From the NCBI GenBank assembly GCA_030647415.1, contig JAUSKB010000016.1, forward strand, positions 1 to 59,843: 59,843 nucleotides of DNA. Reading direction: 5' to 3'. The notes beneath the pieces were generated by a model. It was not told the DNA's origin, did not search any database, and saw only the letters and a list, made by a program, of their open reading frames with translations. Position 1 is the first letter of the stretch. Every line of letters begins with the position of its first letter. Positions 7,224 through 57,789 of the stretch are shown here, piece after piece. The position numbers and the translations under genes were made by a program. The DNA comes from a bacterium. GTDB taxonomy: Bacteria; Patescibacteriota; Minisyncoccia; UBA6257; GWB1-50-10.

Positions 7224-7235
7224 AGCTATTCCTTA

Positions 7236-7269
7236 GGCGAAACCTCTGTGGGTTACCGGAGGTTTCGCC
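7236..7269. repeat. hairpin family B, copy B1 (ggcgaaacctc/gaggtttcgcc)
   Basis: Perfect 11-bp stem ggcgaaacctc...gaggtttcgcc. The same arms recur at 27153, 27400, 50584 and 52892. Confidence 0.85.
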
Positions 7270-7280
7270 TCATGATAAGA

Positions 7281-16080: not shown

Positions 16081-18036
16081 TCAGGTGCGCGGCTCGGTCG
16101 CCTGAGGCGACCGATCACGCATCCGGTGCTCATAGTACCACAGAAATACGTCGCGTGCTACCGGCGTGGTATTCATACTCCCTTCCCGTGAGTTTTCAAT
16201 GAGAATGAGCAGCGCGAGCTCCGGACGGTCCGACGGCGCGAATCCCACGAAGAACGCGTTGGTTCGCTGATTGTTCTCAATTTGTGCCGTCCCCGTCTTC
16301 CCGGCGACCGGGATCGGCAGGTCGTGGAGCGCGTACGAGGTGCCGTACGGCTGCCGAACGCCGTCCCGCATACCTTGCCGAACGACCTCGAGTGCCGGTC
16401 CCAATGTCGAACTGGAATCCTGTAGGATGATCGGCCCGCCTCGACTCGCTCGCTCGCTCGCCTCGCCCGCCTCGCCGAGACGTCGAGTCGAGGCTGGGCT
16501 GGAGCTCCGGCGAAGCGGGTCGGGCGAGGCGGGCCCGCCGACCGACTGGACGATCCGCGGCTGGTACCATATGCCGCCGTTCGCAACCGCGGCAATGTAG
16601 TTCAAGAGCGCGATGGGCGTGACCCCAAGGTCTCCCTGCCCGATTGAGACGTGATACGTGTCGCCGATGCGCCACGGGCGGTCGAAGGTGCGCTCGAACC
16701 ACTCCGGGTCCGGCAAAAAACCTTTCTCCTCCTCGTCAAGGTCGATGCCGGTCGGCTGGTCGAGACGGAACACCTGCCACCACCGCTTCAATGCCACGAT
16801 GCCCAACCCCCGCTGGGATTCGAATCCCCCGCCGACCTCGTAGAAGTAGACATTCGACGACCGCGCGAGCGCGCTCCGTACATCGACCCAACCGTGCGGT
16901 TTCCAGTCCGGGAATATGCTCGGCTGGTCCGGCACATACGGATTGGGAAGCTCAAGCTTTCCAGAAGAAAATATACTCGTGTCAGGGGTTACGATGCCAT
17001 CGGTCAGGGCTGCAGTCGCCATGAGCGGTTTGATGGTCGAGCCGGGACTGTACACACCGCTAACCGCGCGATTGAACAGGGGTTTCGTCGGGTCCGAGAG
17101 GTAGGAGGCGATCTTCCCGGGGTCGTACCCCGGCACGCTCGCGAGCGCGAGCACCTCGCCGTTCTGGGGATTGAGCGCAATCGCCGCGCCGCTCGTTCGG
17201 CCGAGCTCGGCGAGTCCCTGGCTCAACCGGTCAGAGAGGTACGTCTGAAAATCGGCATCGATGAATGTCCGAAGGTCCCCGCCGGCCGCCGAGTCCTGCG
17301 CCGCGCGTTCGCCGCGGACCTCGCCCCGAGCATCCCGGAGCGTCACCCGTTCGCCGTTCACCCCGCGGAGCACCGAGTCGTAGGAACCCTCGAGCCCTAC
17401 GCGACCGACCACATCGTTCACGATGAGCCGGTCATCAGCGTGGAGGTCGGCGTCGTTCGCAAGCCCCACATACCCGATGAGGTGCGAGAATGCGAGCGGG
17501 TTCGCGACTACACGGTTGAACGACGGGACCACGGAGACGCCGGGGAGCTTCGCGGATGCGACGGCGACCAACACATCCTGCGATGGATTCGTGGTAAGCA
17601 CCAGTTCGTCGGCCACGTTCCAGTTCTTTTTGGCGACGGTGTCGAACAGCGTCTGCTGGTCGCTTCCGAGGGCCTCACCAAGGCGCGTGAGTGTGGCCCG
17701 CCGCTCCTCCGGACTGGTCGGCAGATACCGAGGCGCAAGGATGATGTTGAACGACGGGACATTCTTCACGAGCGGCACGCCATACCGGTCATAGATGACG
17801 CCGCGCGGCGCAAGCTCCACGCGCGAATCGCTCATATTCGCGAGCGCACGCGCCGCAAACGCCTCATGTTCGACGAGTGAAAAATATCCGACTCGAATAC
17901 CGACGCCGACAACGACGAATATGCCGACAAGAAGCAGTCGCCGAAACAGGCGGTCCGTCACCGGAACCTCAAGGAGGTCGTCCTCGACAACTCGGTCGGT
18001 CAGAATATCTTCGAGGTTCAGCGGTTCTCGGGACAT
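16081..18036 (-). CDS. mrdA: penicillin-binding protein 2 (elongasome transpeptidase) carrying an in-frame repeat insert
   Basis: N-terminal TM helix, a PBP dimerisation region, and transpeptidase motifs (SPGSTIKP, SSN, KTGTA). Downstream of mreBCD. The insert ...GGPASPDPLRRSSSPASTRRLGEAGEASERASRGG... is element A2. Confidence 0.9.
   Translation of the reverse strand: MSREPLNLEDILTDRVVEDDLLEVPVTDRLFRRLLLVGIFVVVGVGIRVGYFSLVEHEAFAARALANMSDSRVELAPRGVIYDRYGVPLVKNVPSFNIILAPRYLPTSPEERRATLTRLGEALGSDQQTLFDTVAKKNWNVADELVLTTNPSQDVLVAVASAKLPGVSVVPSFNRVVANPLAFSHLIGYVGLANDADLHADDRLIVNDVVGRVGLEGSYDSVLRGVNGERVTLRDARGEVRGERAAQDSAAGGDLRTFIDADFQTYLSDRLSQGLAELGRTSGAAIALNPQNGEVLALASVPGYDPGKIASYLSDPTKPLFNRAVSGVYSPGSTIKPLMATAALTDGIVTPDTSIFSSGKLELPNPYVPDQPSIFPDWKPHGWVDVRSALARSSNVYFYEVGGGFESQRGLGIVALKRWWQVFRLDQPTGIDLDEEEKGFLPDPEWFERTFDRPWRIGDTYHVSIGQGDLGVTPIALLNYIAAVANGGIWYQPRIVQSVGGPASPDPLRRSSSPASTRRLGEAGEASERASRGGPIILQDSSSTLGPALEVVRQGMRDGVRQPYGTSYALHDLPIPVAGKTGTAQIENNQRTNAFFVGFAPSDRPELALLILIENSREGSMNTTPVARDVFLWYYEHRMRDRSPQATEPRT
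16433..16535. repeat. GC-rich palindromic element family A, full-length copy A2 (inside mrdA)
   Basis: 11-bp perfect termini ggcccgcctcg / cgaggcgggcc. The core is identical to A1/A3 (cctcgcccgcctcgccgagacgtcgagtcgaggctgggctg). Confidence 0.88.
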
Positions 18037-18058: not shown

Positions 18059-18169
18059 GTTTACCCTGTTAGAGATTTACATGCACGCCTTTCAAAATAT
18101 ACCTGTTTGTACTAATACCAGCAGGTATACATCCAAAATGATTCTCTGTAAATCTCTAACAGGGTGAAC
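18059..18169. repeat. 107-bp-class TIR element family F4, copy 1
   Basis: Arms gtttaccctgttagagatttaca / tgtaaatctctaacagggtgaac (1 mismatch). It lies 23 nt upstream of the mrdA ATG. Confidence 0.88.
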
Positions 18170-20503: not shown

Positions 20504-20504
20504 A

Positions 20505-20653
20505 AGAGTAATCGCGAATAATGCTAATTATTGCAAATAATGCGAATGAATGCGCACTCCATTCGCATCAGTATACCTGCTATTCGCATTATTCGCGATT
20601 ACTCTTTTCATTCGAATTATTACCTTTGCTATTCGAATTATTCGCGATTACTC
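20505..20653. repeat. 149-bp complex palindrome family C-prime, copy 1
   Basis: Left arm gagtaatcgcgaataatgc. Two alternative right arms: attcgcattattcgcgattactc and attcgaattattcgcgattactc. It overlaps the last codons of proS. Confidence 0.85.
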
Positions 20654-21897
20654 CCGAGGAGCGCGGGCAGGTCCTTCAGCGCGACGAGCTCAGGCTTCCC
20701 GTTCTTGCGCTCTTTTACCTCCACCTTGTTGTGCGCGAGGGTCTTTTCGGAAACGACGAGGCGTGCGGGGATACCGATGAGGTCGGCGTCCGTGAACTTT
20801 TCCCCTGCCGACATTTCGTGCCGGTCGTCGAAGAGGACCTCCATGCCTTTTTTCGTCAGCGCCTCATACACCTTCTCGGCGTAGGCACGAACCTTTTCAT
20901 CCTCACCGAGCACAACGAGGTGCGCGGCGGCGGGCGCGACACTCCGGGGCCAGACGATGCCCCTATCGTCGTGGTGCACCTCTACGATGGTCCCCACGAG
21001 CCGGTCTACCCCGATACCGTAGGATGCCATGATAACGGGGTGGAGCGCACCCGCCGCATCGCGGTAGCGGAGATTCAGTGGCTCCGAGAACCGCGTGCCG
21101 AGCTTGAAAATATTCCCCACCTCGCTCGTCGCGACGTGCTCCACGACGCCGCCGGGGCATTTGGGGCAGGTGGCGCCGGACTTGAGCTTCGATATCTCCT
21201 TGTTCTCCGCATAGCCGCAGAGCCGGCAAAGCACCGTCTCGTCCTCGCCGGCAGACGTTTCCACCATGAACTCATGCGAGTGCTCCTTAGAGAAGTCGCC
21301 GCCCGATGCCTCCGTGACGAACGCGGTGAGCTCCATGCGCTTGAAAACCTTGAGGTAGGCGTGCTTCACCACTTCGTAAAACTCCGCAAGCGATTGCTCA
21401 TCCGCGTGGAAGCTGTAGAGGTCCTTCATGGAAAACTCCCGCCCGCGCATGAGGCCGGACTTCGCGCGCGCCTCGCTCCGGAACTTCGTCTGTATCTGAT
21501 AGGTCGAAATCGGCAGGTCGGCGTAGGAGAAAATGATATGCGTGCCGATCGCGGCGACAATCTCCTCGTGCGTGGGACCCAGGCCGTACTCCTTCCCTTG
21601 CAGGTCCCTAAACTGGTACATCACGCTCTTCATGCTCTCCCATCGGCCGGTCGCGTCCCATGCGGCGCGGGGATGGAGGGCAGGCATGAGGAGCTCCGAG
21701 GCGCCAAGCGCGTTCATCTCCTCGCGGATGATGCCGATGACCTTCTCGCGGACGCGAAATCCCAAGGGCAGGAAGGTGTGGACGCCCGCCATAAGCTTCG
21801 AGATGAACCCACCCCGCGCAAGGAGCTGCGCGTTCACCGAGACCTCATCCTTCGGGGCCTCTTTGAGCGTGCGGGAGAATAATTTTGACTGCCTCAT
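20638..21897 (-). CDS. proS: prolyl-tRNA synthetase, short form without INS editing domain
   Basis: MRQSKLFSRTLKEAPKDEVSVNAQLLARGGF..., motif 2 FRSEARAKSGLMRGREFSMKDLYSF, motif 3 SYGIGVDRL. Only 419 aa. Confidence 0.92.
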   Translation of the reverse strand: MRQSKLFSRTLKEAPKDEVSVNAQLLARGGFISKLMAGVHTFLPLGFRVREKVIGIIREEMNALGASELLMPALHPRAAWDATGRWESMKSVMYQFRDLQGKEYGLGPTHEEIVAAIGTHIIFSYADLPISTYQIQTKFRSEARAKSGLMRGREFSMKDLYSFHADEQSLAEFYEVVKHAYLKVFKRMELTAFVTEASGGDFSKEHSHEFMVETSAGEDETVLCRLCGYAENKEISKLKSGATCPKCPGGVVEHVATSEVGNIFKLGTRFSEPLNLRYRDAAGALHPVIMASYGIGVDRLVGTIVEVHHDDRGIVWPRSVAPAAAHLVVLGEDEKVRAYAEKVYEALTKKGMEVLFDDRHEMSAGEKFTDADLIGIPARLVVSEKTLAHNKVEVKERKNGKPELVALKDLPALLGSNRE

Positions 21898-22046
21898 GGA
21901 GTAATCGCGAATAATGCTAATTTAACTCAAATAATGCGAATAAATGCGCTCTATTCGCATTATTACCTCTACAATTCGCATTATTAGCGATTACTCTCTT
22001 CATTCGCATTATTATATCTGCAATTCGCATTATTAGCGATTACTCC
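21898..22046. repeat. 149-bp complex palindrome family C-prime, copy 2
   Basis: Same organisation and orientation as 20505-20653, and roughly 80 percent identical by eye. It abuts the proS ATG. Confidence 0.85.
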
Positions 22047-22047
22047 T

Positions 22048-22079
22048 TATAGTACCCAAATTTCCGCATTCGGCAACTT
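22048..22079. repeat. 32-bp direct repeat, left flank of the hicAB cassette
   Basis: tatagtacccaaatttccgcattcggcaactt; matches 22814-22845 at 30/32 positions. Confidence 0.85.
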
Positions 22080-27152: not shown

Positions 27153-27190
27153 CAAGGCGAAACCTCAGAATTCCCCGAGGTTTCGCCTTG
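27153..27190. repeat. hairpin family B, copy B2 (contains the holB stop codon in its loop)
   Basis: caaggcgaaacctc-agaattcccc-gaggtttcgccttg, a 14-bp perfect stem. Confidence 0.88.
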
Positions 27191-28019
27191 GGAGCCGCCC
27201 CAAACGCTCCCGGATTGCCCGCTCCTGAAGCACCGGATTCACATTGAACCGGCGGACCAGCTCGAGCCGTTCCGCAAGCCACGCAAGTCTGCCCGGCTGG
27301 CCCGCCCGACCGGACGACTGCGGTCGTTCGGGCAGGTACCCCCGAAATCCGTTCGCGTGCGCCTCGACGAGCATCCGCTCGATCTCGGCGCCAGGATCTC
27401 GAGGCGAAACCTCGGAATCTCCTAGAGGTTTCGCCTCCGGCTTCGACAGCTCGAGCGCACAACCGATGCTTCCGAACGACCGCGCGGCGATGCGGGAAGC
27501 TGCCGCGGGTGAACAGCTACGATGCTGAAGTAAAAATCGCTCCACATGAGCCGCAGGTAGCCGCGGCACGTACACGACGGAAAGCCGTGAACGGAGCGGC
27601 GGAGTGAGTAGGTCTGCCTGGCTCGTCACGACAAGGAGCAGCGCATGTGGCGGTGGTTCCTCGACAATCTTCAAGAGCGCGCCCTGCGCCTCGGGGGTGA
27701 GCGCCTCGGCACCGTCGATGACCACAGTCCGGCGCGGAGACCGAAACGGCGTCTGCCAGAGGAACCTACGGATGTCACGGATAGCATCGATACCAATCGT
27801 CCTATTTTCTCCTGGTGCGGTCGTTGTGATATCCATGAGCGCTGCCGCACCGAACTCGAAGCTACCACACTCAAGGTACGCGGCAAACGATGCCGCGAAT
27901 GTTGCCTTCCCGATACCGCGGTCGCCGACAAAACAGTAGGCGTGCGTTAGCGTGCCCTCCCGCGAGAGGCGGGCGAATATCGCAGTAAGTTTATCGTACC
28001 CTACTAGAGTGGATGACAT
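27165..28019 (-). CDS. holB: DNA polymerase III delta-prime subunit (clamp-loader AAA+)
   Basis: HAYCFVGDRGIGKATFA P-loop, VVIDGAEALTPEAQGALLKIVEEPP. The C-terminus runs through two B hairpins. Confidence 0.8.
   Translation of the reverse strand: MSSTLVGYDKLTAIFARLSREGTLTHAYCFVGDRGIGKATFAASFAAYLECGSFEFGAAALMDITTTAPGENRTIGIDAIRDIRRFLWQTPFRSPRRTVVIDGAEALTPEAQGALLKIVEEPPPHALLLVVTSQADLLTPPLRSRLSVVYVPRLPAAHVERFLLQHRSCSPAAASRIAARSFGSIGCALELSKPEAKPLGDSEVSPRDPGAEIERMLVEAHANGFRGYLPERPQSSGRAGQPGRLAWLAERLELVRRFNVNPVLQERAIRERLGRLPRRNLGEF
27400..27436. repeat. hairpin family B, copy B3 (in-frame inside holB)
   Basis: gaggcgaaacctc...gaggtttcgcctc; translated as EAKPLGDSEVSPR. Confidence 0.85.
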
Positions 28020-35467: not shown

Positions 35468-36214
35468 CTAGCGTTTCTTCTTCGTCTTCCCGCTTGGCGC
35501 TTCAAGTGAGACGGTGGGCGTCACTTCGACGCCTGCAACCTTCTCGAAATGGTCCTTTAGGATATTGCCTGCCTTATGGAGCGCTTCGGACGGCGTGATG
35601 GAACCATCCGTCTCGATCTCGAGCTGGAGCCGATTGTAGTCCGTCTGGTCGCCCACCCGCATATTCTCCACTATGAACGAGACACGGACGATTGGCGAAA
35701 AGATTGCGTCGAGCACGATGGTGCCGACCGGAAGCCGCTCAAGCCGACGCGCCTCCGCCGGGACGTAGCCGAGCCCCTTCTCGACTGTGAGCTCCACGTC
35801 GAGATCAGCCGATTTCTTGGTGAGCGTCGCGAGATGTAATGGTGTGTTGATGACCCTCGCAAACGTCGTCGATTCAATGTCTTCGGCGGTCACTGCCCGC
35901 TCGCCCTTCGCGTGGAGCGTGAGTACTTGCGGCTCGTCCGCAAAAAAGTGGAATCGAACCTGCTTCAGGTTCAGTATGAACTCGACCACATCTTCCATCA
36001 TGCCTGGAATTGTCGAGAACTCGTGGTCGACCCCCTTGACTTTGATTTGCGTGATGGCGGCGCCGGGCAACGACGAAAGCAGGGTTCGCCGGAGCGCGTT
36101 CCCCAGCGTGGTGCCGTACCCGGTGTACAGTCCTTCGATGTGGAATACGCCGATATTCTGCTCCTCGGAGACCTTTTTGATGACGACGGTGTCACTGACG
36201 TGTGTGTATTTCAT
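35468..36214 (-). CDS. rpoA: DNA-directed RNA polymerase alpha subunit, N-terminal domain only
   Basis: Canonical alpha-NTD (GYGTTLGNALRRTLLSSLPGAAIT...). The ORF ends at 248 aa (...EAPSGKTKKKR*) with no alpha-CTD. Confidence 0.9.
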   Translation of the reverse strand: MKYTHVSDTVVIKKVSEEQNIGVFHIEGLYTGYGTTLGNALRRTLLSSLPGAAITQIKVKGVDHEFSTIPGMMEDVVEFILNLKQVRFHFFADEPQVLTLHAKGERAVTAEDIESTTFARVINTPLHLATLTKKSADLDVELTVEKGLGYVPAEARRLERLPVGTIVLDAIFSPIVRVSFIVENMRVGDQTDYNRLQLEIETDGSITPSEALHKAGNILKDHFEKVAGVEVTPTVSLEAPSGKTKKKR

Positions 36215-36319
36215 CCCGTTAGAAATTTAAACATATTCGTTGATTTTTTGTATACGACTGTTTTTTGGAAACATGATTTTATTGATTCACCAATCCCGCG
36301 TAAATTTCTAACGGGATGA
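36211..36319. repeat. TIR element family F4, copy 2
   Basis: Perfect 19-bp arms tcatcccgttagaaattta / taaatttctaacgggatga. The rpoA ATG (36212-36214) lies inside the left arm. Confidence 0.9.
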
Positions 36320-36321
36320 AT

Positions 36322-37114: not shown

Positions 37115-37310
37115 GCCGATTTTATTTGAGCGGAGCGAAATTTAAAATCGAGCACCCCGCACCACTTTTGCAGCAAGGTAGTGATTCAATGATGGTGTGT
37201 GTGATAGATGTCATATTTTTCAGTAATGATTCGTGAGGCAAAAGTGGTGCGGGGTAAGGTTTGGTGGCTGTATTTTCTGCGCCTTCGGCTTGAAAATCCA
37301 GACCAAGCCC
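37115..37310. repeat. long-armed palindrome family F5, copy 2
   Basis: Inner perfect 18-bp stem accccgcaccacttttgc / gcaaaagtggtgcggggt. The outer right arm is near-identical to 36453-36513. It exactly fills the gap between the rpsK stop and the rpsD start. Confidence 0.88.
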
Positions 37311-38274: not shown

Positions 38275-38387
38275 TAGCCCTGCCTCTGCTTATGCTTCTT
38301 GTTCACACAAATAACGAAGACACGACCACGGCGTCTGACCGTTTTGCATTTCATGCAGATTTTCTTTACTGATGAGCGTACCTTCAT
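38274..38387 (-). CDS. rpmJ: 50S ribosomal protein L36
   Basis: Not in the ORF track (too short). The minus strand encodes [37 protein letters not shown], canonical L36 in its usual place between infA and rpsM. Confidence 0.9.
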
Positions 38388-38490
38388 CCTGTTAGAGTTT
38401 TACACGCAATCCAACTGCGTGTAAAAAGTTTTTCGTTTGGCAAACAAGTTTCCATAGGATTCGTGGGTTTGTAAAACTCTAACAGGATGA
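38384..38490. repeat. TIR element family F4, copy 3
   Basis: Perfect 21-bp arms tcatcctgttagagttttaca / tgtaaaactctaacaggatga. The rpmJ ATG (38385-38387) lies inside the left arm. Confidence 0.9.
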
Positions 38491-38502
38491 ATGGAACCCT
38501 TT

Positions 38503-38898: not shown

Positions 38899-40611
38899 CT
38901 ACTCCACCACGACCGTGATTTTCCGGGAATCGTTCGGCGCCCGGCGGACCCAGAACGGCCACAGATGCACGGTTGCCTTCGAGATGCCGGGAATGTCTGA
39001 AAGCATTGAGTTGAGCTTCGTTTCATCCTTGCCCAGTATGAGCGTGGTAAGTGCAGTGCTATCGAGCACATACCGGAGCGCTACCGTGCCGGATGCCGCG
39101 ACCGTGAGTGTACCACGATCGAAGTCGACTGTTGGCACCTCGAACGACGCATCGATCGAGTCCACGGTGAGCGACGAGGACTGCTGCGCCGCCGCACGCA
39201 CCGCCCGTGCGCCAACCGCCTCCTTGAACATGCGGTCATCAAAGACAATCTGCTTGAGCGACGCCTCACCGAACAACCGAAACGTACCGGAATCGTCCCC
39301 CGACGAGCGGAGGCGGCGCAGAACGACGAACCGCGTTGCGTCACGGAGCTCCGTAAAATGCTCATTTGCGGTGAGGAGCACCAGCTCGCTCACGAGCGCA
39401 TCACGGAGCGACGCATCGAGCGACTGCACCGCCCTCGCCTCCTCTTCCTTCGTGGGCGCTGCCCGTTCGCCCATGAAACCGCCCCGGAGTGCGTCCGGCG
39501 CCGCCGCGGTGAACGTATCATATTTCGGCGTACCCTGGAATCCCGGAATCCGCCATCCGTCGCTCGCAGGGACATTATGCGCCTCCCCGGCCGCATCAGC
39601 CGTCACCGAAACAGTCGTCGTGGACGATTGGATGGTTCCCCCAGAAACCCGTGCACCGGGAATGACCGATCGCTGGTTTAAGCGGAACACCGTGCCCTCC
39701 GGCGAGACAAACCGGGTCGTTGCGACCAGCACTTGCGGTTCCGAACTGAACGCGTTCGTCACCACGAGTGTTCCCGACGCCTTCGTGGCCACACGTTCCG
39801 TCCCTGCCGTCGGGAAGGTGAGCTCCAACGTGCGCCGTGCGTCGAACGACTGTGCAGGCAGCACGATGCGCGTGCCGGTACTCTCGGGCGCAGTGACACG
39901 GACCGAGGCGTCGATCAATTCCATGAACGGGATGGGAATCCGTGCGGCGCGAATCGTGACGGTCGCGCGCGGCACCACCGCGGTCGCCACCCACCAGCCT
40001 CCCCCGAGTACCGCGGCGGCGCATACGGAAATCACCAGGACGCGGAACCAGTGCGGTGACCGCTTGGGACGCTCCGGCTCCGGCTCTGGAACCGCGGCAG
40101 GTTGTGTGTCCTTCGTCGAACGTTCGCTGTTTTCAATTTCGAGTTTTGACTCTTCGCGCTCAACTTCTTGACGTTCGATATCAGACGTTAGACGATCTGC
40201 GGCAGATTCCACCGCTTGCGCATTCAATCCACCTCGCCCGCCTCGCCGAGACGTCGAGTCGAGGCTGGGCTGGAGCCGCGACGAAGCGGACCCGACGAGT
40301 GGGCGAGTCGAGGCGGGCCGTGCGATGATATCGGAAACAGCCCGCTCCTTCGAGTGGAAGAATGCGTTGCGGGATGGGATCCCGGCGAGCGACGCGAGTT
40401 CGAGGATATGGTCGTCCGCCGACTCGATCATGAGCTCCTTCCCCGCGTGCTCGGCTTCCCGGCGCAAGAGGTGGAAATTCTGCACCGAAACGCCAATGTC
40501 GGCTCCGGACGGGATGGTAAGCATAATCCTCGTGGAATCCTCGGTAAGGATCTTTTCCACGATTGCCGGGAGGCTATCCCCGCGCGCAATGAGTATTTTT
40601 TTCTCGGTCAT
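38899..40611 (-). CDS. hypothetical bitopic envelope protein carrying an in-frame family A element
   Basis: 570 aa: a cytoplasmic N-domain, one TM helix (VLVISVCAAAVLGGGWWV), and a large beta-rich C-domain. The insert ...SASSRLQPSLDSTSRRGGRGG... is element A3. Confidence 0.65.
   Translation of the reverse strand: MTEKKILIARGDSLPAIVEKILTEDSTRIMLTIPSGADIGVSVQNFHLLRREAEHAGKELMIESADDHILELASLAGIPSRNAFFHSKERAVSDIIARPASTRPLVGSASSRLQPSLDSTSRRGGRGGLNAQAVESAADRLTSDIERQEVEREESKLEIENSERSTKDTQPAAVPEPEPERPKRSPHWFRVLVISVCAAAVLGGGWWVATAVVPRATVTIRAARIPIPFMELIDASVRVTAPESTGTRIVLPAQSFDARRTLELTFPTAGTERVATKASGTLVVTNAFSSEPQVLVATTRFVSPEGTVFRLNQRSVIPGARVSGGTIQSSTTTVSVTADAAGEAHNVPASDGWRIPGFQGTPKYDTFTAAAPDALRGGFMGERAAPTKEEEARAVQSLDASLRDALVSELVLLTANEHFTELRDATRFVVLRRLRSSGDDSGTFRLFGEASLKQIVFDDRMFKEAVGARAVRAAAQQSSSLTVDSIDASFEVPTVDFDRGTLTVAASGTVALRYVLDSTALTTLILGKDETKLNSMLSDIPGISKATVHLWPFWVRRAPNDSRKITVVVE
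40232..40319. repeat. GC-rich palindromic element family A, copy A3
   Basis: Core identical to A1/A2. The right end gggcgagtcgaggcgggcc is the reverse complement of the A2 left end. Confidence 0.88.
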
Positions 40612-40612
40612 T

Positions 40613-40717
40613 TACCCTGTTAGAGTTTTACAGACACACAAATATCTCACAAAGTTTTGTTCGCGCAATAACAAATTTTTATATGCAATGGATTATGTGT
40701 AAAACTCTAACAGGGTA
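40613..40717. repeat. TIR element family F4, copy 4
   Basis: Perfect 20-bp arms taccctgttagagttttaca / tgtaaaactctaacagggta. The left arm starts 2 nt from the ATG of 38899..40611. Confidence 0.9.
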
Positions 40718-40734: not shown

Positions 40735-40756
40735 TGTAAACTTCTAACAGGGTGAA
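40735..40756. repeat. solo F4 arm
   Basis: tgtaaacttctaacagggtgaa, an extra right-type arm 18 nt after copy 4. Confidence 0.75.
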
Positions 40757-42073: not shown

Positions 42074-42182
42074 GTTTACCCTGTTAGGGTTTTACACACA
42101 AATTTTTCCGGATAAAAACCTATGTTCTGACACAAAAAAAACACCAGGACGCGGATTGCTCGTAAAACCCTAACGGGGTATA
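42074..42182. repeat. TIR element family F4, copy 5
   Basis: Arms gtttaccctgttagggttttaca / cgtaaaaccctaacggggtatac. It lies 11 nt upstream of the ATG at 42063. Confidence 0.85.
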
Positions 42183-42250
42183 CCGTAGACAGTAACGCGT
42201 ATACAGTCACCATCTTCCTGTGTCTCTCGTTTCTTCTCTCTTGTCGCTGT

Positions 42251-50583: not shown

Positions 50584-50618
50584 AGGCGAGACCTTAAAAG
50601 AATCCCAAGGTCTCGCCT
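50584..50618. repeat. hairpin family B, copy B4
   Basis: aggcgagacctt-aaaagaatccc-aaggtctcgcct, downstream of the 50644 stop. Confidence 0.85.
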
Positions 50619-50643: not shown

Positions 50644-51522
50644 TTAACGCGCGGTGAAAACCTGCAACCCCAACCCGCCCAACCGCACCTCAATTGTCCC
50701 CCGCTCGTCCGTGCGAAAAATGGCGGCGCCCGCGGCGCGGAGCCGCGCGAGCGTTTCGGACGTCGGGTGGCCGTAGCTATTCTTCCCGACTTCAATGACG
50801 GCGACCGCGGGGCGGAGCGCGCGGAGAAACTCTTCTGATGAGGAAAACTTCGACCCGTGGTGGCCGACTTTCAGAATATCCACGGGACTTACGCCCGCGC
50901 GGACGAGTGTCCGCTCGACCGGCGCCCCAGCGTCGCCGGTGAAGAGGGCGGAAACGCCGCCGCTCTCGACGCGCGCGACGAGCGTCGTATCGTTCAGGTC
51001 ATCCGAGCGAAGCAGGTCTGGCGTCGGCGAAAGTATGCGAACCGTACCGCCGCTCGTCCGAATACGGTCGCCCGCTCCGAGCTCGACCATACGGATGCCA
51101 CGCTCCTCGATGACCCGGATGAGCTCGCGGTACGCATCGGTATCCCGCGACCGCCCCGAAGAGAGGAAGGCGCCGACATCATACTGCCGGAGTACCTCGA
51201 TAAGCCCGCCAAAGTGGTCCTCTTGCGGATGGGTCATGAGCACCAGGTCGATATAGCGGTCGGTCGGGGCGAGCGCGCGTCCCAGTTCCCGGAGCACCGC
51301 GCCGGTCGGCGGCCCGCCGTCAATGAGGAGCTGTACGCCGCCGGCCTGCCCGCCTCCGGCGGGGAATTCCACGAGTTCGCTATCCCCCTGCCCCACGTCG
51401 AGAAAGAGAAATCTCGTTTCGGCGGATGACGCAAGCACTCCCCGCCACACAACGATATCGAGCGCGAGGAGGGCGAGCGCGAGTATGAGGATTTTTTCTT
51501 TATGTTTCTCAAGTATGCGCAT
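50644..51522 (-). CDS. ComEC-type metallo-beta-lactamase domain protein (separate ORF)
   Basis: FLDVGQGDSELVEF, LVLMTHPQEDHFGGL, KVGHHGS. It overlaps the upstream comEC channel ORF by 14 nt. Confidence 0.85.
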   Translation of the reverse strand: MRILEKHKEKILILALALLALDIVVWRGVLASSAETRFLFLDVGQGDSELVEFPAGGGQAGGVQLLIDGGPPTGAVLRELGRALAPTDRYIDLVLMTHPQEDHFGGLIEVLRQYDVGAFLSSGRSRDTDAYRELIRVIEERGIRMVELGAGDRIRTSGGTVRILSPTPDLLRSDDLNDTTLVARVESGGVSALFTGDAGAPVERTLVRAGVSPVDILKVGHHGSKFSSSEEFLRALRPAVAVIEVGKNSYGHPTSETLARLRAAGAAIFRTDERGTIEVRLGGLGLQVFTAR

Positions 51523-53098
51523 TTTTGAGATGGGTTCTCGTCATCCAGACCACGAATCCGATAAGCACGGCATAGTACGCGAACGCGCCAGCCCACGAAA
51601 TGGCGGGGGCGACGGGCACGGAAATCAAGCTGAATAGCCGGATAACGCCCAACTCATACTGCGTGAGCGCCCATGCGACGAGACCGACGACTTGCGCAAG
51701 GAGAATCGACGCGGCACCGACTGCGGCGGTTAAGAACCCCACACCCATTGTAATCGGCACCGCGGCAAGGATGAGCAGGTTCGCCGCGAGCGAGGTCACA
51801 GACACCATCCCAAACTGCGCAATCAAGATGGGTGCAACCGCGAGCTGGGCTGCGGCAGTCGTGGATAGTGTGGTACGCCAGTCGAGGAAACCTTTGTTCC
51901 CCCGGGACGCCGTAAATCGCCGGAGCACGGGCTCAAGGTAGACGATGCCGAGAAGGGCGACGAAGGAGAGCTGGAACCCCACGTCGAACGCGAGCACCTT
52001 CGGGTTCACGAGAACCATCGCGAGGCCGGCGAGGACGACGGCCTGCCGAACGTCGAAGAGTCGTCCAGTCTCCTTCGCGGCGAGGGCGAGTGACCCCATG
52101 ATTGCGGCTCGAACCACCGATGCCTCCGCCCCTGCCATACACACAAACCCGAGTATCACCGCAAGCGTGACGAGGAACGCTGCTCGACGCCGTCGAGATA
52201 TGAGCCAGAGCGCCGCACCCATGACCGCCTCGCCAAGAATGGTGATGTTATACCCGGAGAGCGCGACAAGGTGCGTCGTGCCGGAGCGCTGCATGGAGTT
52301 CTTTAGCTCATCCGAAAACGCACCGCGCTCCCCCACCGTGAGGCCGGAGAGAAACGAGGCGTCCTCCGCCGGCAGGACGCGCGCGAAGACGCCGGTCACC
52401 GCATGCTTCAGGGAGAAGAGCGCGGACTGAATCGGCGAGCCCTGCCCACGCGCGACGACGGTAACCGTCGGCCGGTTCATCACGCCCGACACACGCTCCT
52501 TCGCAAGGTACCGGGCGTACCCCTCGGGCTCCGGTTGCTTCACGACGCCGGCGAGTGAAACCTCGTCCCCGTACCGGACCGCCGGGTACGGCGGGAGGTT
52601 CGCGATGACCCGCCCGACCGGACGCCAGCCCGACAAAGCCGTTCTGGCGGGGTCGTTCGGGCGGGCCCGCCCTGCTGCGGCTCCGTGAGCTGGCGGATCG
52701 AGCCGGATGAATGCTGAACGGTACCCATCCCGAAGCACCGGATCATTCACCACAACGCCGCGCAACGTCTGGGTTCCCAGTGACACCGCAGAGGCACGGA
52801 ATCGCATGTCGTCGAAGTGGTAGTACACCGACCCCGCGATGATGAGCGGCGCGAGCGCCGCAAGCACAAAGCACCGGCGTCGCATCGCGCCCCAAGGCGA
52901 GACCTCAAGAATCCCCGAGGTCTCGCCTTGGGGCGCGAGTACTGAAATGAAACGTGGCGCAAAGAATCCAACAATAAGCAACACCGCGGCGAGCGCGGCG
53001 ACTATAAGAAGCACCTGATAGGTCAACCCAAGACTCGCGAGGAGGACCCCGAGGAGGAATGTGAGCGCTCCGTAGAACAGCACGCTCGGTGCAGGCAC
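51509..53098 (-). CDS. comEC: DNA internalisation competence protein ComEC/Rec2, channel part
   Basis: N-terminal OB/DUF4131-like region and a polytopic competence domain (...SGTTHLVALSGYNITIL...). It contains in-frame hairpin B5. Confidence 0.85.
   Translation of the reverse strand: MPAPSVLFYGALTFLLGVLLASLGLTYQVLLIVAALAAVLLIVGFFAPRFISVLAPQGETSGILEVSPWGAMRRRCFVLAALAPLIIAGSVYYHFDDMRFRASAVSLGTQTLRGVVVNDPVLRDGYRSAFIRLDPPAHGAAAGRARPNDPARTALSGWRPVGRVIANLPPYPAVRYGDEVSLAGVVKQPEPEGYARYLAKERVSGVMNRPTVTVVARGQGSPIQSALFSLKHAVTGVFARVLPAEDASFLSGLTVGERGAFSDELKNSMQRSGTTHLVALSGYNITILGEAVMGAALWLISRRRRAAFLVTLAVILGFVCMAGAEASVVRAAIMGSLALAAKETGRLFDVRQAVVLAGLAMVLVNPKVLAFDVGFQLSFVALLGIVYLEPVLRRFTASRGNKGFLDWRTTLSTTAAAQLAVAPILIAQFGMVSVTSLAANLLILAAVPITMGVGFLTAAVGAASILLAQVVGLVAWALTQYELGVIRLFSLISVPVAPAISWAGAFAYYAVLIGFVVWMTRTHLKNAHT
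52892..52931. repeat. hairpin family B, copy B5 (in-frame inside comEC)
   Basis: ccaaggcgagacctc-aagaatcccc-gaggtctcgccttgg, a 15-bp perfect stem translated as QGETSGILEVSPW. Confidence 0.88.
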
Positions 53099-54409: not shown

Positions 54410-55783
54410 TCATGTGATAATGCCCCCGCCGAGCATTTCCCCGTCCTCGGAATACCAGACCGCGGACTGGCCGGGGGCGATGAATTTGACAGGAGCAGTA
54501 AAAAGTAAGCAGTAATTGTCCCGACTTTGTCGTGGACTCACGACTCTGTCGGAGGTAATAGGTAATGAACTCCCAGTTACCTCTTGCGTATTACTTATTA
54601 CCAGCTCTCCCCTCACCAACGGCTGCCGGTACCGCACCCGGGCGAGGACGGACATGCTAACATTCTGCAGAATGTTAGCATGTTGCAGCGTGTCATTGCC
54701 ATCGCTTGGCAAATCCGTCATTCTAACATTCTTAAGAATGTTAGAATGACTTCCGTTGATAAAATTTACATTTGCAAGCGTCACCTCCGTGCGGAAGAGC
54801 GCGGGATTGTCAGTGCCCTCGGCGACCATGACGACATTCTTCTCCACATCGATTGCCGAGATGTAGTATGGCGGCGTTTCTGCGTTTCCTTTTTCTTTTG
54901 TCTTTTTTCCTAAGTTGAGCCCATGCCGCTGCCCGATGGTGTACAGATGCGTGCCGCGGTGCTCCCCTACTTTAGTACCATTAGTCGCAATGACGTCCCC
55001 CGGACGGTCAGGGATGTGCCTCGCGACGAAGTCGGCGAGCGCGACGTCGCCCAGGAAGCAGATGCCCTGCGAGTCTTTTTTGTCTGCCGTAGGCAGACCA
55101 GCTTTCCGCGCGATGTCCCGTACTTCGGATTTCAGGAGGTCGCCGACAGGGAAGAGCGCGTGCGCGAGCTGTTTCTGCGTGAGCGTCCACAGGAAATAGC
55201 TCTGATCTTTGTTCTTATCCTTCGCCTCAAATAACGAAAAAGAGGGTGCGGCACCGCGCTTTTGTGAGGGGTAAGACTTGGGCGTCGCCCCGGAGACACC
55301 CCGAACGGAAGCGCGGTGCCGCACCCGTGCATAATGCCCCGTCGCCACATACTCCGCCCCGAGCGAGAGCGCCTTTTCCATGAACAGCCCGAACTTTATT
55401 TCGCGATTACAGACCACGTCCGGATTCGGCGTGATGCCGCGCCGGTACCCGTCAATGAGGTACTCCACCACACGCTGCCGGTACTCCTCCTCGAAGTCGA
55501 ACACGTAGAACGGGATGCCGAGGTGGTTCGCGACGCGCCGCGCGTCCTCCGCGTCTTTTTCCGATGGGCACTCGCCAGCCACGCCGAGCTCGTCAAGCCG
55601 CGCCTGGCTCCAGCACTTTAAGTACACCCCCGTCACGTCGTAGCCCCTAAACCCCTCCGGGGTCGGGCGACCAAACAATTTTTCGAAATTGTTTGGTGTA
55701 GCCCGCTTGAGCAACAACGCCGCAACGGAGCTATCTACCCCGCCCGACATACCTACGAACACTTTTTGTCGTTTGATTGACAT
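54410..55783 (-). CDS. mnmA: tRNA 2-thiouridine(34) synthase MnmA, about 95 aa longer than usual
   Basis: PP-loop VFVGMSGGVDSSVAALLL, DKNKDQSYFLW, and the C-terminal FIAPGQSAVWY. The extra length maps to palindromic DNA inserts. Confidence 0.9.
   Translation of the reverse strand: MSIKRQKVFVGMSGGVDSSVAALLLKRATPNNFEKLFGRPTPEGFRGYDVTGVYLKCWSQARLDELGVAGECPSEKDAEDARRVANHLGIPFYVFDFEEEYRQRVVEYLIDGYRRGITPNPDVVCNREIKFGLFMEKALSLGAEYVATGHYARVRHRASVRGVSGATPKSYPSQKRGAAPSFSLFEAKDKNKDQSYFLWTLTQKQLAHALFPVGDLLKSEVRDIARKAGLPTADKKDSQGICFLGDVALADFVARHIPDRPGDVIATNGTKVGEHRGTHLYTIGQRHGLNLGKKTKEKGNAETPPYYISAIDVEKNVVMVAEGTDNPALFRTEVTLANVNFINGSHSNILKNVRMTDLPSDGNDTLQHANILQNVSMSVLARVRYRQPLVRGELVISNTQEVTGSSLPITSDRVVSPRQSRDNYCLLFTAPVKFIAPGQSAVWYSEDGEMLGGGIIT
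54497..54602. repeat. word-type (taat/ggta) palindromic insert inside mnmA
   Basis: agtaaaaagtaagcagtaattg ... ggtaataggtaatgaactcccagttacctcttgcgtattacttattacc. The same vocabulary occurs in intergenic spacers at 6437-6522, 29172-29272 and 38810-38886. Confidence 0.7.
54654..54749. repeat. two perfect AT-rich palindromes inside mnmA (28 bp and 32 bp)
   Basis: atgctaacattctgcagaatgttagcat (54654-54681) and tcattctaacattcttaagaatgttagaatga (54718-54749). The 96-bp block equals 32 codons. Confidence 0.9.
55243..55325. repeat. GC-rich inverted-repeat insert inside mnmA
   Basis: Perfect 18-bp arms gggtgcggcaccgcgctt / aagcgcggtgccgcaccc, separated by 47 nt. Confidence 0.85.
55670..55697. repeat. 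12-bp-stem hairpin insert inside mnmA
   Basis: accaaacaattt-ttcg-aaattgtttggt; translated as TPNNFEKLFG between the PP-loop and the next conserved block. Confidence 0.8.
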
Positions 55784-56306: not shown

Positions 56307-56348
56307 CGAATATACCATAATCGACGGCCGTCGATTATGGTATATTCG
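56307..56348. repeat. 42-bp perfect palindrome between convergent genes
   Basis: cgaatataccataatcgacgg|ccgtcgattatggtatattcg. Confidence 0.9.
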
Positions 56349-56433: not shown

Positions 56434-57789
56434 CTACGGGCGGGCGCGGAGCAGGTCGAAGACGCGGTACGCCTCCCCTGCCCCCATCGTGATGACCACA
56501 TCCTTCGGACGGAGCGAACGGCGAAGTTCGCTAGCGATTTTTTTGAAACTTCCAACGTACGAAGCATCGGTCTGTACAGCCATTGCAACGGCAAGGTCAC
56601 GCGCATGCACTGTGCCGTCGTCCCGCTCCCGTGCCGCGTAGATATCTGCGAGGAGCACGTGGTCGGCATCGTTGAAGGCGGTCGCGAACTCACTCATGAG
56701 GAGTTTCGTCCGTGAGTAGAGGTGGGGCTGGAAAACGACCCAGATGCGCCGACGGGAACCAAAGTGTTCCCGCGCGGCCTTGAGCGCCGCGCGAATCTCC
56801 GTCGGGTGATGGGAGTAGTCGTCGTAGAAGCGGACGCTGTTCCAAGTTCCCTTGTACTCGAACCGGCGACCGACACCACGAAATGAACGAAGCGACTTTC
56901 GGATTATGGTGTCCGGGATGCCGAGAAATTTCCCGACCGCATACGCCGCCTGCGCGTTCCGGATATTGTGGTCGCCAATAACATTTAAATCTTTCAATCT
57001 TGGTGACTTTGAATAGTCCACGACCTTCGACCCGCGGATGACTTCGCGAATGTGCGGCGCCTTCGGGTCACAAATTACCGCCCCATTTCTCCCGAGTTTC
57101 GCCACAAACTCACGGAAGGCGCGTTTGATGTTCCCGATGTTCTTGTAGTAATCGAGGTGGTCGTTGTCGATGTTGGTGATGACAATGACGCTCGGGTGGA
57201 TATCGAGGAAGGACTTTTTGTACTCGCACGCCTCAGCGACGAGGTAAGGCCCTGTACCGCCAATAAAATTAGTCGCCATCCCGTTAGAAGCCACCCTGCC
57301 CGCAACACGGCTACGGCTGCCACGGGGCGGCCTGCTTCTAACGGGACTCATCATGCCGCCGACGATGACGGTGGGATCGAGTTTCGCATCTCGCAGGAGC
57401 TTCCCTACCATCGCCGTCGTGGTCGTCTTCCCGTGCGCACCTGCAACCGCGATGGTGAACTTCTCGCGCGAAATGATGCCGAGCATCTCGGCGTAAGAAA
57501 GACATGGGATTCTCTTTTGGCGTGCGGCAACAAGCTCGGGATTCGTGTCCGACACCGCCTTCGTGTACACCACCAAGTCCGGCTTCCCAATATCGGACAT
57601 CCGATGTCCGACATGGACGCGGATTCCCTCGCGGATGAGCGCGTCTGTTATGGACGACCGACCGGAGTCCGACCCGGTCACCCGCTTCCCCATGCGTGCG
57701 AGCATCCGTGCGATGGCGGATACCCCCACGCCACCAATGCCGACGCAGTGCACGCTTCGGACCTCCTCAAGTTTTATCCGCTTTAGCAT
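56434..57789 (-). CDS. murC: UDP-N-acetylmuramate--L-alanine ligase with an in-frame palindromic insert
   Basis: VHCVGIGGVGVSAIARMLARMGKRVTGSD, GAHGKTTTT, EACEYKKSF, DDYSHHPTE. The insert is ...SPVRSRPPRGSRSRVAGRVASNG.... Confidence 0.93.
   Translation of the reverse strand: MLKRIKLEEVRSVHCVGIGGVGVSAIARMLARMGKRVTGSDSGRSSITDALIREGIRVHVGHRMSDIGKPDLVVYTKAVSDTNPELVAARQKRIPCLSYAEMLGIISREKFTIAVAGAHGKTTTTAMVGKLLRDAKLDPTVIVGGMMSPVRSRPPRGSRSRVAGRVASNGMATNFIGGTGPYLVAEACEYKKSFLDIHPSVIVITNIDNDHLDYYKNIGNIKRAFREFVAKLGRNGAVICDPKAPHIREVIRGSKVVDYSKSPRLKDLNVIGDHNIRNAQAAYAVGKFLGIPDTIIRKSLRSFRGVGRRFEYKGTWNSVRFYDDYSHHPTEIRAALKAAREHFGSRRRIWVVFQPHLYSRTKLLMSEFATAFNDADHVLLADIYAARERDDGTVHARDLAVAMAVQTDASYVGSFKKIASELRRSLRPKDVVITMGAGEAYRVFDLLRARP
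57279..57346. repeat. F4-type arms flanking a GC-rich centre, inside murC
   Basis: Perfect 13-bp arms tcccgttagaagc / gcttctaacggga (compare the F4 copy 2 arm tcatcccgttagaaattta). Confidence 0.85.

Follow-up and report, generated by a model that had tools for sequence, protein, structure and literature searches.

The contig JAUSKB010000016.1, a stretch of 59,843 nucleotides from a Patescibacteriota genome that is referred to throughout as the window, carries a murC gene with a perfect palindrome inside its unbroken reading frame. The locus raises the question of where such a sequence came from and how an essential gene could accommodate it. A preliminary description of this DNA had taken it for a palindromic repeat element lodged in frame inside murC and tolerated there as a loop, and the analysis reported here supports that view. 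The segment is very probably a copy of a small, non-autonomous mobile element of the kind known as a miniature inverted-repeat transposable element (MITE), which lies in frame in murC and is probably read through as a loop of the protein.

The palindrome was found exactly where it had been placed, at 57279-57346, with perfect 13-bp arms (GCTTCTAACGGGA being the exact reverse complement of TCCCGTTAGAAGC) around a GC-rich spacer of 42 nt. The murC open reading frame (ORF) is likewise intact at 451 aa as described, reading ...VGGMMSPVRSRPPRGSRSRVAGRVASNGMATNFIGG... around the element, with the palindrome itself encoding MMSPVRSRPPRGSRSRVAGRVASNGMAT. The window contains 20 perfect inverted repeats whose arms measure 13 nt or more and whose loops do not exceed 100 nt, while 100 simulated windows had 0.1 on average, and the core CCYGTTAGRR occurs 14 times where 0.67 would be expected. 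Both strands of the murC hairpin fold with a stability well beyond that of shuffled sequence, at -42.7 kcal/mol (z -3.8) for the mRNA strand and at -39.5 kcal/mol (z -4.95) for the other. The murC palindrome is no chance feature.

The product of the ORF was assigned to MurC by its Pfam domains (Mur_ligase, Mur_ligase_M and Mur_ligase_C) and by matches to MurC entries of the PDB down to E = 6.6e-84. Alignment with its homologues, those named being annotated as Candidatus Jorgensenbacteria and other Patescibacteria, delimited the insert and bore out the claim that it sits where homologues have a short loop, the interval between the GG and NF motifs being 7 residues in 19 of the 19 nearest aligned MurC homologues and 28 in the MurC of the window. 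In the closest homologue (P0002; 432 aa, 79-83% identical) the segment is absent at both the protein and the DNA level, and the DNA alignment with its contig shows a single 63-nt gap at the element with about 80% identity on either side. The PVRS...ASNG motif that the element encodes was found in none of the 120 best MurC homologues listed. The segment is thus absent from all homologues checked, aligned or listed, which is the opposite of what an ancestral loop, shared at the protein level by distant orthologues lacking the DNA palindrome, would have left behind. On these alignments the murC segment reads as a net insertion of 63 nt, or 21 aa, and not of the approximately 23 aa first proposed.

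In order to place the element in a wider context, species-representative genomes (one genome per species, GTDB representatives, 596 Gb) were scanned for the arm pair CCCGTTAGAAGC-N25-55-GCTTCTAACGGG. The pair was found in at least 120 genome loci, where by our arithmetic about 0.13 would be expected by chance, and the first scan returned at least 124 copies of 49-79 nt with identical 12-bp arms. Most of the hosts fall within the Patescibacteria (Saccharibacteria, Paceibacteria, Kaiser-, Nomura-, Doudna-, Wolfe-, Azam- and Terrybacteria, among others), with further copies in bins assigned to Omnitrophota, Planctomycetota, Nitrospinota, Nitrospiria, Thermodesulfovibrionales, Deltaproteobacteria and Riflebacteria. 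Three unrelated centres are held between the same ends, namely a GC-rich type of 65-73 nt, a 60-nt type with two hairpins and an AT-rich type of 76-79 nt. The murC copy is of the GC-rich subtype, of which 56 copies from 54 sources were collected. The whole of its 66 nt, and not the arms alone, fits a covariance model (R1) built from 14 GC-rich copies (Table 1), and since the minus strand scores only 28.6 bits and orientation is defined by the model (plus being the strand with the UACG loop), the element lies antisense to murC. The 3' 22-mer GGGGCGRYCTGCTTCTAACGGG was found in 45 genome loci, almost all of them in Patescibacteria. At the protein level, a profile of the 44-aa concatenated peptide gave 6 matches, the E-values of 22-aa matches being too weak against 5.8 billion sequences. 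Carriage by phages was considered and set aside, exact matches to the arm pair numbering zero in 2.9 million viral contigs. The AT-rich copies of 76-79 nt in the Planctomycetota bin JAZDMB01 (L007, L014, L031, L080 and L098) have additional conserved flanks, cctgc|element|ctgRgaagctMa, which suggests a longer composite unit in that lineage.

Evidence that the family moves came from its flanks. When the hexamers on either side of 123 copies were compared, each position was identical in 54-79% of copies in register 6, while in other registers of the same copies the identical fraction was roughly 0.02-0.4 and mostly 0.1-0.3. The two central positions, which are compositionally unbiased, agree in 71-74%, and the target hexamer, present as a 6-nt direct repeat, follows the pattern RYNNRY. 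A filled and empty pair of alleles was provided by the RsmH gene of a Nomurabacteria genome (L005), which has a 69-nt copy inside it, while the RsmH proteins P0123 and P0124, from other assemblies, are 100% identical outside the insert and are without the element. The filled allele reads GAGAAT-ATTGAT-[CCC...GGG]-ATTGAT-GGA and the empty one GAGAAT-ATTGAT-GGA, with 2 substitutions in approximately 175 nt of flank. This pair sets the boundaries of the element at exactly CCC...GGG, and insertion therefore adds the core and 6 nt. The family is demonstrably mobile, inserting cleanly with a 6-bp target duplication, and the murC copy is likely to have arrived by the same transposition as the rest of it.

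Two host genes were found to be filled repeatedly at one site. In RsmH, before the IDGIIFDLG motif, lineages that share no more than about 70% identity have the element, while it is missing from closer relatives (77-100%; the entries that bear on this site are L005 and the proteins P0121, P0122, P0126, P0129, P0130 and P0131), and in Sua5/TsaC the same site is filled in three genomes (L097, L142 and L157). Either targets resembling (A/G)TTGAT are a hot spot for insertion, or the element entered long ago and has been precisely lost several times.

The 56 aligned GC-rich copies support a Y-shaped fold of four helices (P1 to P4; Table 1). In this alignment 89.9% of the cells are paired, against 35-47% when the partners are slid, and 13 pairs have changed on both sides. 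Covariation scored 0.172, where shuffles gave 0.069 and none of 500 reached the observed value; because the alignment had been fitted to the model and was made of related copies, these statistics lean towards structure. The unpaired linkers are also conserved across distant lineages, and we treat the conserved fold as real. An excess of G-U over A-C pairs (45 against 22 in raw counts), considered as a sign of which strand folds, was dropped, because 27 of the 45 G-U pairs arise where one P4 variant is shifted in register. In the murC copy P1 and P4 are preserved, P2 contains a single mismatch, and P3, a part that has decayed, no longer forms. The lost P3 and the mismatch in P2, together with a flanking repeat that is blurred and a net gain of only 63 nt in place of 72, indicate that the insertion into murC is not recent.

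A conserved fold could be envisaged as the mark of a domesticated element, in which the hairpin or the peptide is useful to the host as an expression-tuning RNA, a site for RNase III or another protein, or a loop for interactions of MurC, and this would be compatible with a mobile origin. The covariation of the inner helices and the conservation of the linkers point that way, as do the insertions that recur at one site of RsmH and of Sua5 in genomes whose identity is only about 70%, and the great stability of the hairpin on the mRNA strand. Nevertheless, we consider such a role unlikely in murC. Its copy, without P3 and with P2 mismatched, has the look of decay and not of maintenance; the hosts of the family are unrelated genes entered in both orientations; presence and absence differ between near-identical strains; and the peptide is predicted to be disordered.

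How the murC element is expressed can be judged from the other genic copies. About 20 GC-rich copies lie inside long ORFs, approximately 10 of them sense and 10 antisense to the host gene by our tally, and all read PVRS...ASNG, in one of two peptide types, PVRSRPAEGTATTVSGRSASNG-like or, as in murC, PVRSRSPQGGRSRARSGAASNG-like. Their cores measure 66, 69 or 72 nt, all divisible by three, and those of intergenic copies include 65, 67, 68, 70, 71 and 73 nt. The hosts identified by Pfam are RsmH, PurD, MetRS, RibD, a beta-CASP RNase, ComEC, ScpA, FolD, Sua5/TsaC, a PfkB kinase, GyrA/ParC, a carbamoyltransferase, a pseudouridine synthase, the ATP synthase gamma subunit (AtpG), DNA polymerase I (PolA), Fpg and a methylpurine glycosylase (MPG); one further copy lies in a long ORF with CarB-like sequence, identified without Pfam. 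Copies of other subtypes are present in an aconitase-family small subunit and an ABC ATPase of Omnitrophota. In the host proteins the duplicated hexamer appears as a repeated dipeptide (ID..ID, VN..VN, VD..VD). A second register also lacks stop codons in 35-41 of 44 copies, but no genic copy uses it; it is Leu-rich, with a Kyte-Doolittle value of about +0.2 against -0.7 to -1.0 for the register used. The use of one register, the rule of length and the lack of stops fit selection on a translated product and not excision from the mRNA.

The same observations bear on the proposal that the hairpin is an intervening sequence, which would be cut out of the mRNA or skipped during translation and so would never be present in MurC. 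Its stable stem would join the two flanking hexamers. Bacteria of the candidate phyla radiation (CPR) carry many intervening sequences in their rRNA, and in yeast mitochondria ribosomes are known to bypass GC-rich palindromes. Excision or bypass would, however, lift all constraints on frame, length and stops, yet every one of the roughly 20 genic copies obeys them and uses just one of two open registers. In addition, the element has no match in Rfam, introns and ribozymes included, and we know of no bacterial splicing machinery for a hairpin of this kind. We hold this explanation to be very improbable and conclude that MurC is most likely translated straight through the element, because its length, its stop-free register and the tolerated loop allow it.

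Whether the enlarged protein still functions was approached through an AlphaFold model, computed from the 20-sequence alignment (mean pLDDT 86, pTM 0.85). The only segment with a pLDDT below 50 is residues 146-173, exactly the enlarged loop, which is modelled without secondary structure; in the central domain it falls between two strands, a little ahead of the EACEY motif. The insert is thus predicted to form a disordered surface loop, a possibility for which the preliminary description had proposed such a model as a check. The reading that murC is inactivated, the ORF being a young pseudogene or backed up by another murC, draws on the position of the loop only about 14 residues before the catalytic EACEY motif and on the fact that only 60 kb of the genome is visible, so that a second murC could exist. 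It is nonetheless highly doubtful. The ORF is intact, the conserved V143, G144, N174, F175 and E186 are retained together with every other column invariant among 20 homologues, and the rest of the model is confident. The frame also stayed open while the element decayed, with P3 lost and the duplication blurred, and the family is found in gyrA, polA, metG and atpG of other genomes. MurC with the insert probably remains active. The least credible alternative, that template switching or slippage created the segment in place, or that it is a long-standing loop of this lineage whose likeness to the family is fortuitous, can point to a palindrome in mnmA (55244-55326), one arm of which lies over conserved native codons, a hint that some palindromes are generated locally, but it is effectively refuted by the match of all 66 nt to a model from other genomes (73.6 bits) and by the homologue alignment, in which the nearest relatives are without the segment.

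The history that we favour for murC is accordingly one of transposition. An element whose structured, GC-rich centre is enclosed by terminal inverted repeats of 12-13 bp (CCCGTTAGAAGC...GCTTCTAACGGG), and which targets RYNNRY hexamers and duplicates 6 bp, would have inserted into the loop that separates the invariant motifs GG and NF in the central domain of MurC, after the lineage had split from its closest sampled relative. Its survival there may be attributed to three properties: core and duplication together are a multiple of three, the register used has no stop in either orientation, and the hydrophilic, Pro/Gly/Ser/Arg-rich stretch PVRS...ASNG would be borne as a disordered surface loop. 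The MurC of the window forms a protein cluster with a single member from a single contig in a 15-billion-protein collection, so that no close strain is on record. Several points weigh against this history. The nearest murC relative is only about 80% identical and thus does not provide an empty allele of the same gene. The flanking hexamers of the murC copy match at only 3 of 6 positions, and the net gain of 63 nt falls short of the 72 nt expected, so that at least one further change of 9 nt must be assumed. The search for an autonomous element or a transposase bearing these ends was negative, inverted arm pairs at the distances of insertion sequences being absent from about 0.9 Mb of loci, a weak negative given a pattern span of at most 600 nt. 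As regards the family, many of the genomes are metagenome bins and some phylum labels may be wrong, and the covariation of the inner hairpins could stem from hairpin-templated repair instead of selection.

For a broader proposal the balance appears to us to be even. It would be that transposable palindromes of 50-80 bp with common 12-bp termini make up a superfamily that crosses phyla, of which one subtype, with a conserved Y-shaped single-strand fold, has evolved a single register that can be translated whichever way the element lies, and colonised essential genes (gyrA, polA, metG, carB, atpG, murC and others) across the CPR. The mover would probably be an enzyme that recognises structure, and the family would be an ongoing source of surface loops in reduced genomes.

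Table 1. Positions of the murC element and its parts, helices of the family fold, and other repeat copies in the window
Feature	Position	Strand	Remarks
murC coding sequence	56434..57789	minus	451 aa, host gene; ORF unbroken through the element
Left flanking hexamer CGCCAT	57274..57279		candidate decayed target-site duplication; matches right hexamer at 3/6
Left terminal inverted repeat TCCCGTTAGAAGC	57279..57291		on the murC strand, C-terminal ASNG of the inserted peptide
Element core, CCC...GGG	57280..57345	+	66 nt; covariance model R1, 73.6 bits, E = 2.6e-15
P2 5' strand CACCC, murC copy	57292..57296	+	pairs with GGGCG 57325-57329; one A-C mismatch against consensus CGCCC
P3 remnant GCCCGCAACA, murC copy	57298..57307	+	too short to pair (alignment, fold)
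P4 hairpin CGGC-UACG-GCUG, murC copy	57308..57319	+	intact
P2 3' strand and conserved unpaired linker (GGGGCG GCCT), murC copy	57324..57333	+	from alignment of copies
Right terminal inverted repeat GCTTCTAACGGGA	57334..57346		on the murC strand, N-terminal PVRS of the inserted peptide
Right flanking hexamer ACTCAT	57346..57351		fits RYNNRY
P1 (family)			12-bp terminal helix formed by the arms
P2 (family)			5-bp helix, CGCCC/GGGCG
P3 (family)			variable hairpin; pairs switch among C-G, G-C and U-A
P4 (family)			hairpin with UACG cap
Intergenic relative between rpsD and rpoA	36210..36320		nearest in the window to the murC arms; 20-nt perfect arms TTCATCCCGTTAGAAATTTA, 71-nt AT-rich centre
Intergenic F4 copy	18059..18169		arms GTTTACCCTGTTAGAGATTTACA, 65-nt centre
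Intergenic F4 copy	38383..38491		22-nt perfect arms, 65-nt centre
Intergenic F4 copy	40613..40717		immediately upstream of the start of ORF 38899..40611; extra half-arm 40742-40751
Intergenic F4 copy	42074..42183		arm/core scan
Five-copy family	52885-52938		in ComEC (51509..53098, minus)
Five-copy family	27401-27437		in DNA pol III delta'-like gene (27165..28019, minus)
Five-copy family	7235-7270		
Five-copy family	27153-27190		
Five-copy family	50584-50618		

The relation of the murC element to the other repeats of the window required correction. It had been assigned to a local intergenic type, labelled F4, and its arms had been matched to the copy at 36210. That match is real but short (CATCCCGTTAGAA, 13 nt, for one arm and TTCTAACGGGATG for the other), and of the F4 copies of the window only that at 36210 has the CCCGTTAGAA version of the core in common with murC. 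F4 copies have arms of about 20-22 nt (CCTGTTAGAGWTTTACA) and AT-rich centres of 65-71 nt, and lie between the genes of the ribosomal-protein/rpoA region and neighbouring genes. The murC copy shares with them only the 11-13-nt core of the arms and belongs to a distinct GC-rich, structured subtype seen in many other genomes, so that it is a cousin and not a member of F4. The F4 arm variant CCTGTTAGAGNTTTACA ... TGTAAANCTCTAACAGG had no match in the species-representative genomes (which do not include the source genome) and looks lineage-specific. The ATG of rpoA falls inside one arm of the copy at 36210-36320. In this copy and that at 40613-40717, a consensus scan showed that the arm gives a -35-like box (TTTACA/TTTACG) and the centre a -10-like box (TAAAAT/AAAAAT) at a spacing of 17 nt, on the strand of the downstream genes (rpoA and ORF 38899..40611, respectively), and the two may serve as portable promoter or 5'-UTR cassettes.

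Further palindromes were noted within genes of the window. The mnmA gene (54410-55783, minus) encodes 457 aa, against about 375 aa in solved MnmA structures, and has three in-frame palindromes: a hairpin with 12-nt arms at 55670-55697, encoding TPNNFEKLFG within an 18-aa insert; the palindrome at 55244-55326, with 18-nt arms GGGTGCGGCACCGCGCTT, a 47-nt spacer and an insert of about 20 aa, whose left arm overlaps the conserved GHYARV codons; and, at 54652-54750, two zero-loop palindromes CTAACATTCTnnAGAATGTTAG encoding NILKNVRM and NILQNVSM, with the GTTAGA core also seen in the murC arms. A second family, CCAAGGCGARACCTC, 10-12 nt, GAGGTYTCGCCTTGG, is present in five copies (Table 1), two of them in frame in genes and encoding LAPQGETSGILEVSPWGAM and EAKPLGDSEVSPR; its 10-mer CCCCAAGGCG is common to the reverse strand of the murC-type element. 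One MurC homologue (P0016, 454 aa) has a different insert of 24 aa, PYPHTKRGAFANNVSGATPRCGV, in its C-terminal domain (alignment columns ~461-484), and this peptide resembles the insert at 55244-55326 of mnmA (VSGATP, KRGA), a likeness that suggests a further family of coding palindromes common to several genomes. In the gene for PBP2 (16081..18036, minus), a GC-rich imperfect inverted repeat at 16433-16564 lies in a low-complexity stretch of about 45 aa (YQPRIVQSVGGPASPDPLRRSSSPASTRRLGEAGEASERASRGGP) of the transpeptidase domain and may be another decayed coding palindrome. Between mnmA and murC, at 56307-56348, there is a perfect 42-nt zero-loop palindrome, CGAATATACCATAATCGACGG|CCGTCGATTATGGTATATTCG, in a region whose ORFs have no Pfam match. 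Other intergenic families of inverted repeats were seen at 37154-37255, 20504-20653 and 21881-22063; an inverted repeat of ACCCCGCACCACTTTTGC with a 66-nt spacer adjoins rpsD, and AAGAGTAATCGCGAATAATGC-type arms with AATAATGCGAAT repeats flank the class II aminoacyl-tRNA synthetase gene 20638..21897.

The element was finally compared with systems already known. The attC sites of integrons, which lie after cassette genes next to an integrase, have R'' (RYYYAAC) at the 5' end and R' (GTTRRRY) at the 3' end. In the present family this order is reversed (GTTAGAA first, TTCTAAC last), and the copies of the window lie in the ribosomal-protein/rpoA operon and in murC, which rules out an attC site. 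Inteins are protein-splicing domains of at least about 130 aa with conserved blocks, whereas the insert is 21-22 aa of low complexity with no Pfam domain over it. A self-splicing intron, a ribozyme or another described structured RNA was excluded by Rfam, which gave no match at the gathering score in the whole window and only chance-level scores (18 bits at most) in 57200-57420. Among organelles, the mitochondrial coding palindromes of Nematomorpha, with repeats of up to 284 bp in which both arms encode conserved protein (PMC6649704), and the GC clusters or 'byp' elements of yeast mitochondria are similar in placing inverted repeats in coding sequence with the frame kept; yeast byp elements, however, are skipped by the ribosome, while the frame statistics of the present family argue for read-through. 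Repetitive extragenic palindromes (REPs), 20-40 nt long with GTAG or CGTC heads (PMC3733652), and their composites (BIMEs) are likewise short, abundant, hairpin-forming and mostly intergenic chromosomal repeats, and their associated RAYT enzyme offers an analogy, in that a structure-specific, single-strand enzyme is a plausible mover for the present family. Identity with REPs or BIMEs is ruled out, as these are extragenic and lack a target duplication, while the element is 66 nt long with CCCG termini, a 6-bp duplication and frequent genic copies.

Bacterial MITEs such as Correia/NEMIS, ERIC, Nezha and the Coxiella QMITE come closer. With them the family has in common terminal inverted repeats, a target-site duplication (established at the level of the family), small size with many copies, lack of a transposase gene, polymorphism of presence and absence (in RsmH) and occasional in-frame genic copies. 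It differs in being much smaller than most MITEs, in having covarying inner helices, in carrying unrelated centres between identical 12-bp termini, and in that one subtype lies in frame as a rule and not as an exception; nor was a parent insertion sequence with the same ends seen in the 0.9 Mb of loci, within the span given above. A literature search by arm sequences, CPR MITEs, coding palindromes and papers citing work on Rickettsia palindromic elements (RPEs), with subscription journals outside its coverage, returned no description of the family, and this family of coding mobile palindromes is apparently undescribed.

RPEs are the system to which the murC element had originally been likened. 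They are approximately 100-150 bp long and confined to Rickettsia (Ogata et al. 2000, 2002, as summarised in PMC10969869), and a 2024 review of MITEs regards them as the outstanding in-frame case, others being only conjectured (PMC10969869). As in the present family, short palindromic repeats lie between genes and, in frame, inside unrelated housekeeping genes, where they encode a tolerated, family-specific peptide, and both are regarded as selfish DNA of a small, host-dependent genome. The resemblance holds for this functional side (in-frame location, unrelated genes, conserved peptide) and fails for size, target duplication and host range: the present elements measure 50-80 bp (66-72 bp in the genic subtype) and inhabit many classes of Patescibacteria and other phyla in place of Rickettsia alone, and they offer a clean 6-bp target duplication, a filled and empty pair of alleles, and use of one register in both orientations. 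By host range and size, as these are described for RPEs and independently of sequence, the family is not RPE. It could explain some of the unexplained insertions in CPR proteins and gives a testable model of how mobile DNA makes protein loops, and the recurrent 22-25-aa 'PVRS...ASNG' segment calls for caution among annotators and structure predictors. The in-frame colonisation of housekeeping genes by palindromic mobile DNA, so far treated as a peculiarity of Rickettsia, now appears in another, very extensive section of the bacterial tree, with direct support from insertion polymorphism, a defined target duplication, a strict frame rule and a conserved nucleic-acid fold.

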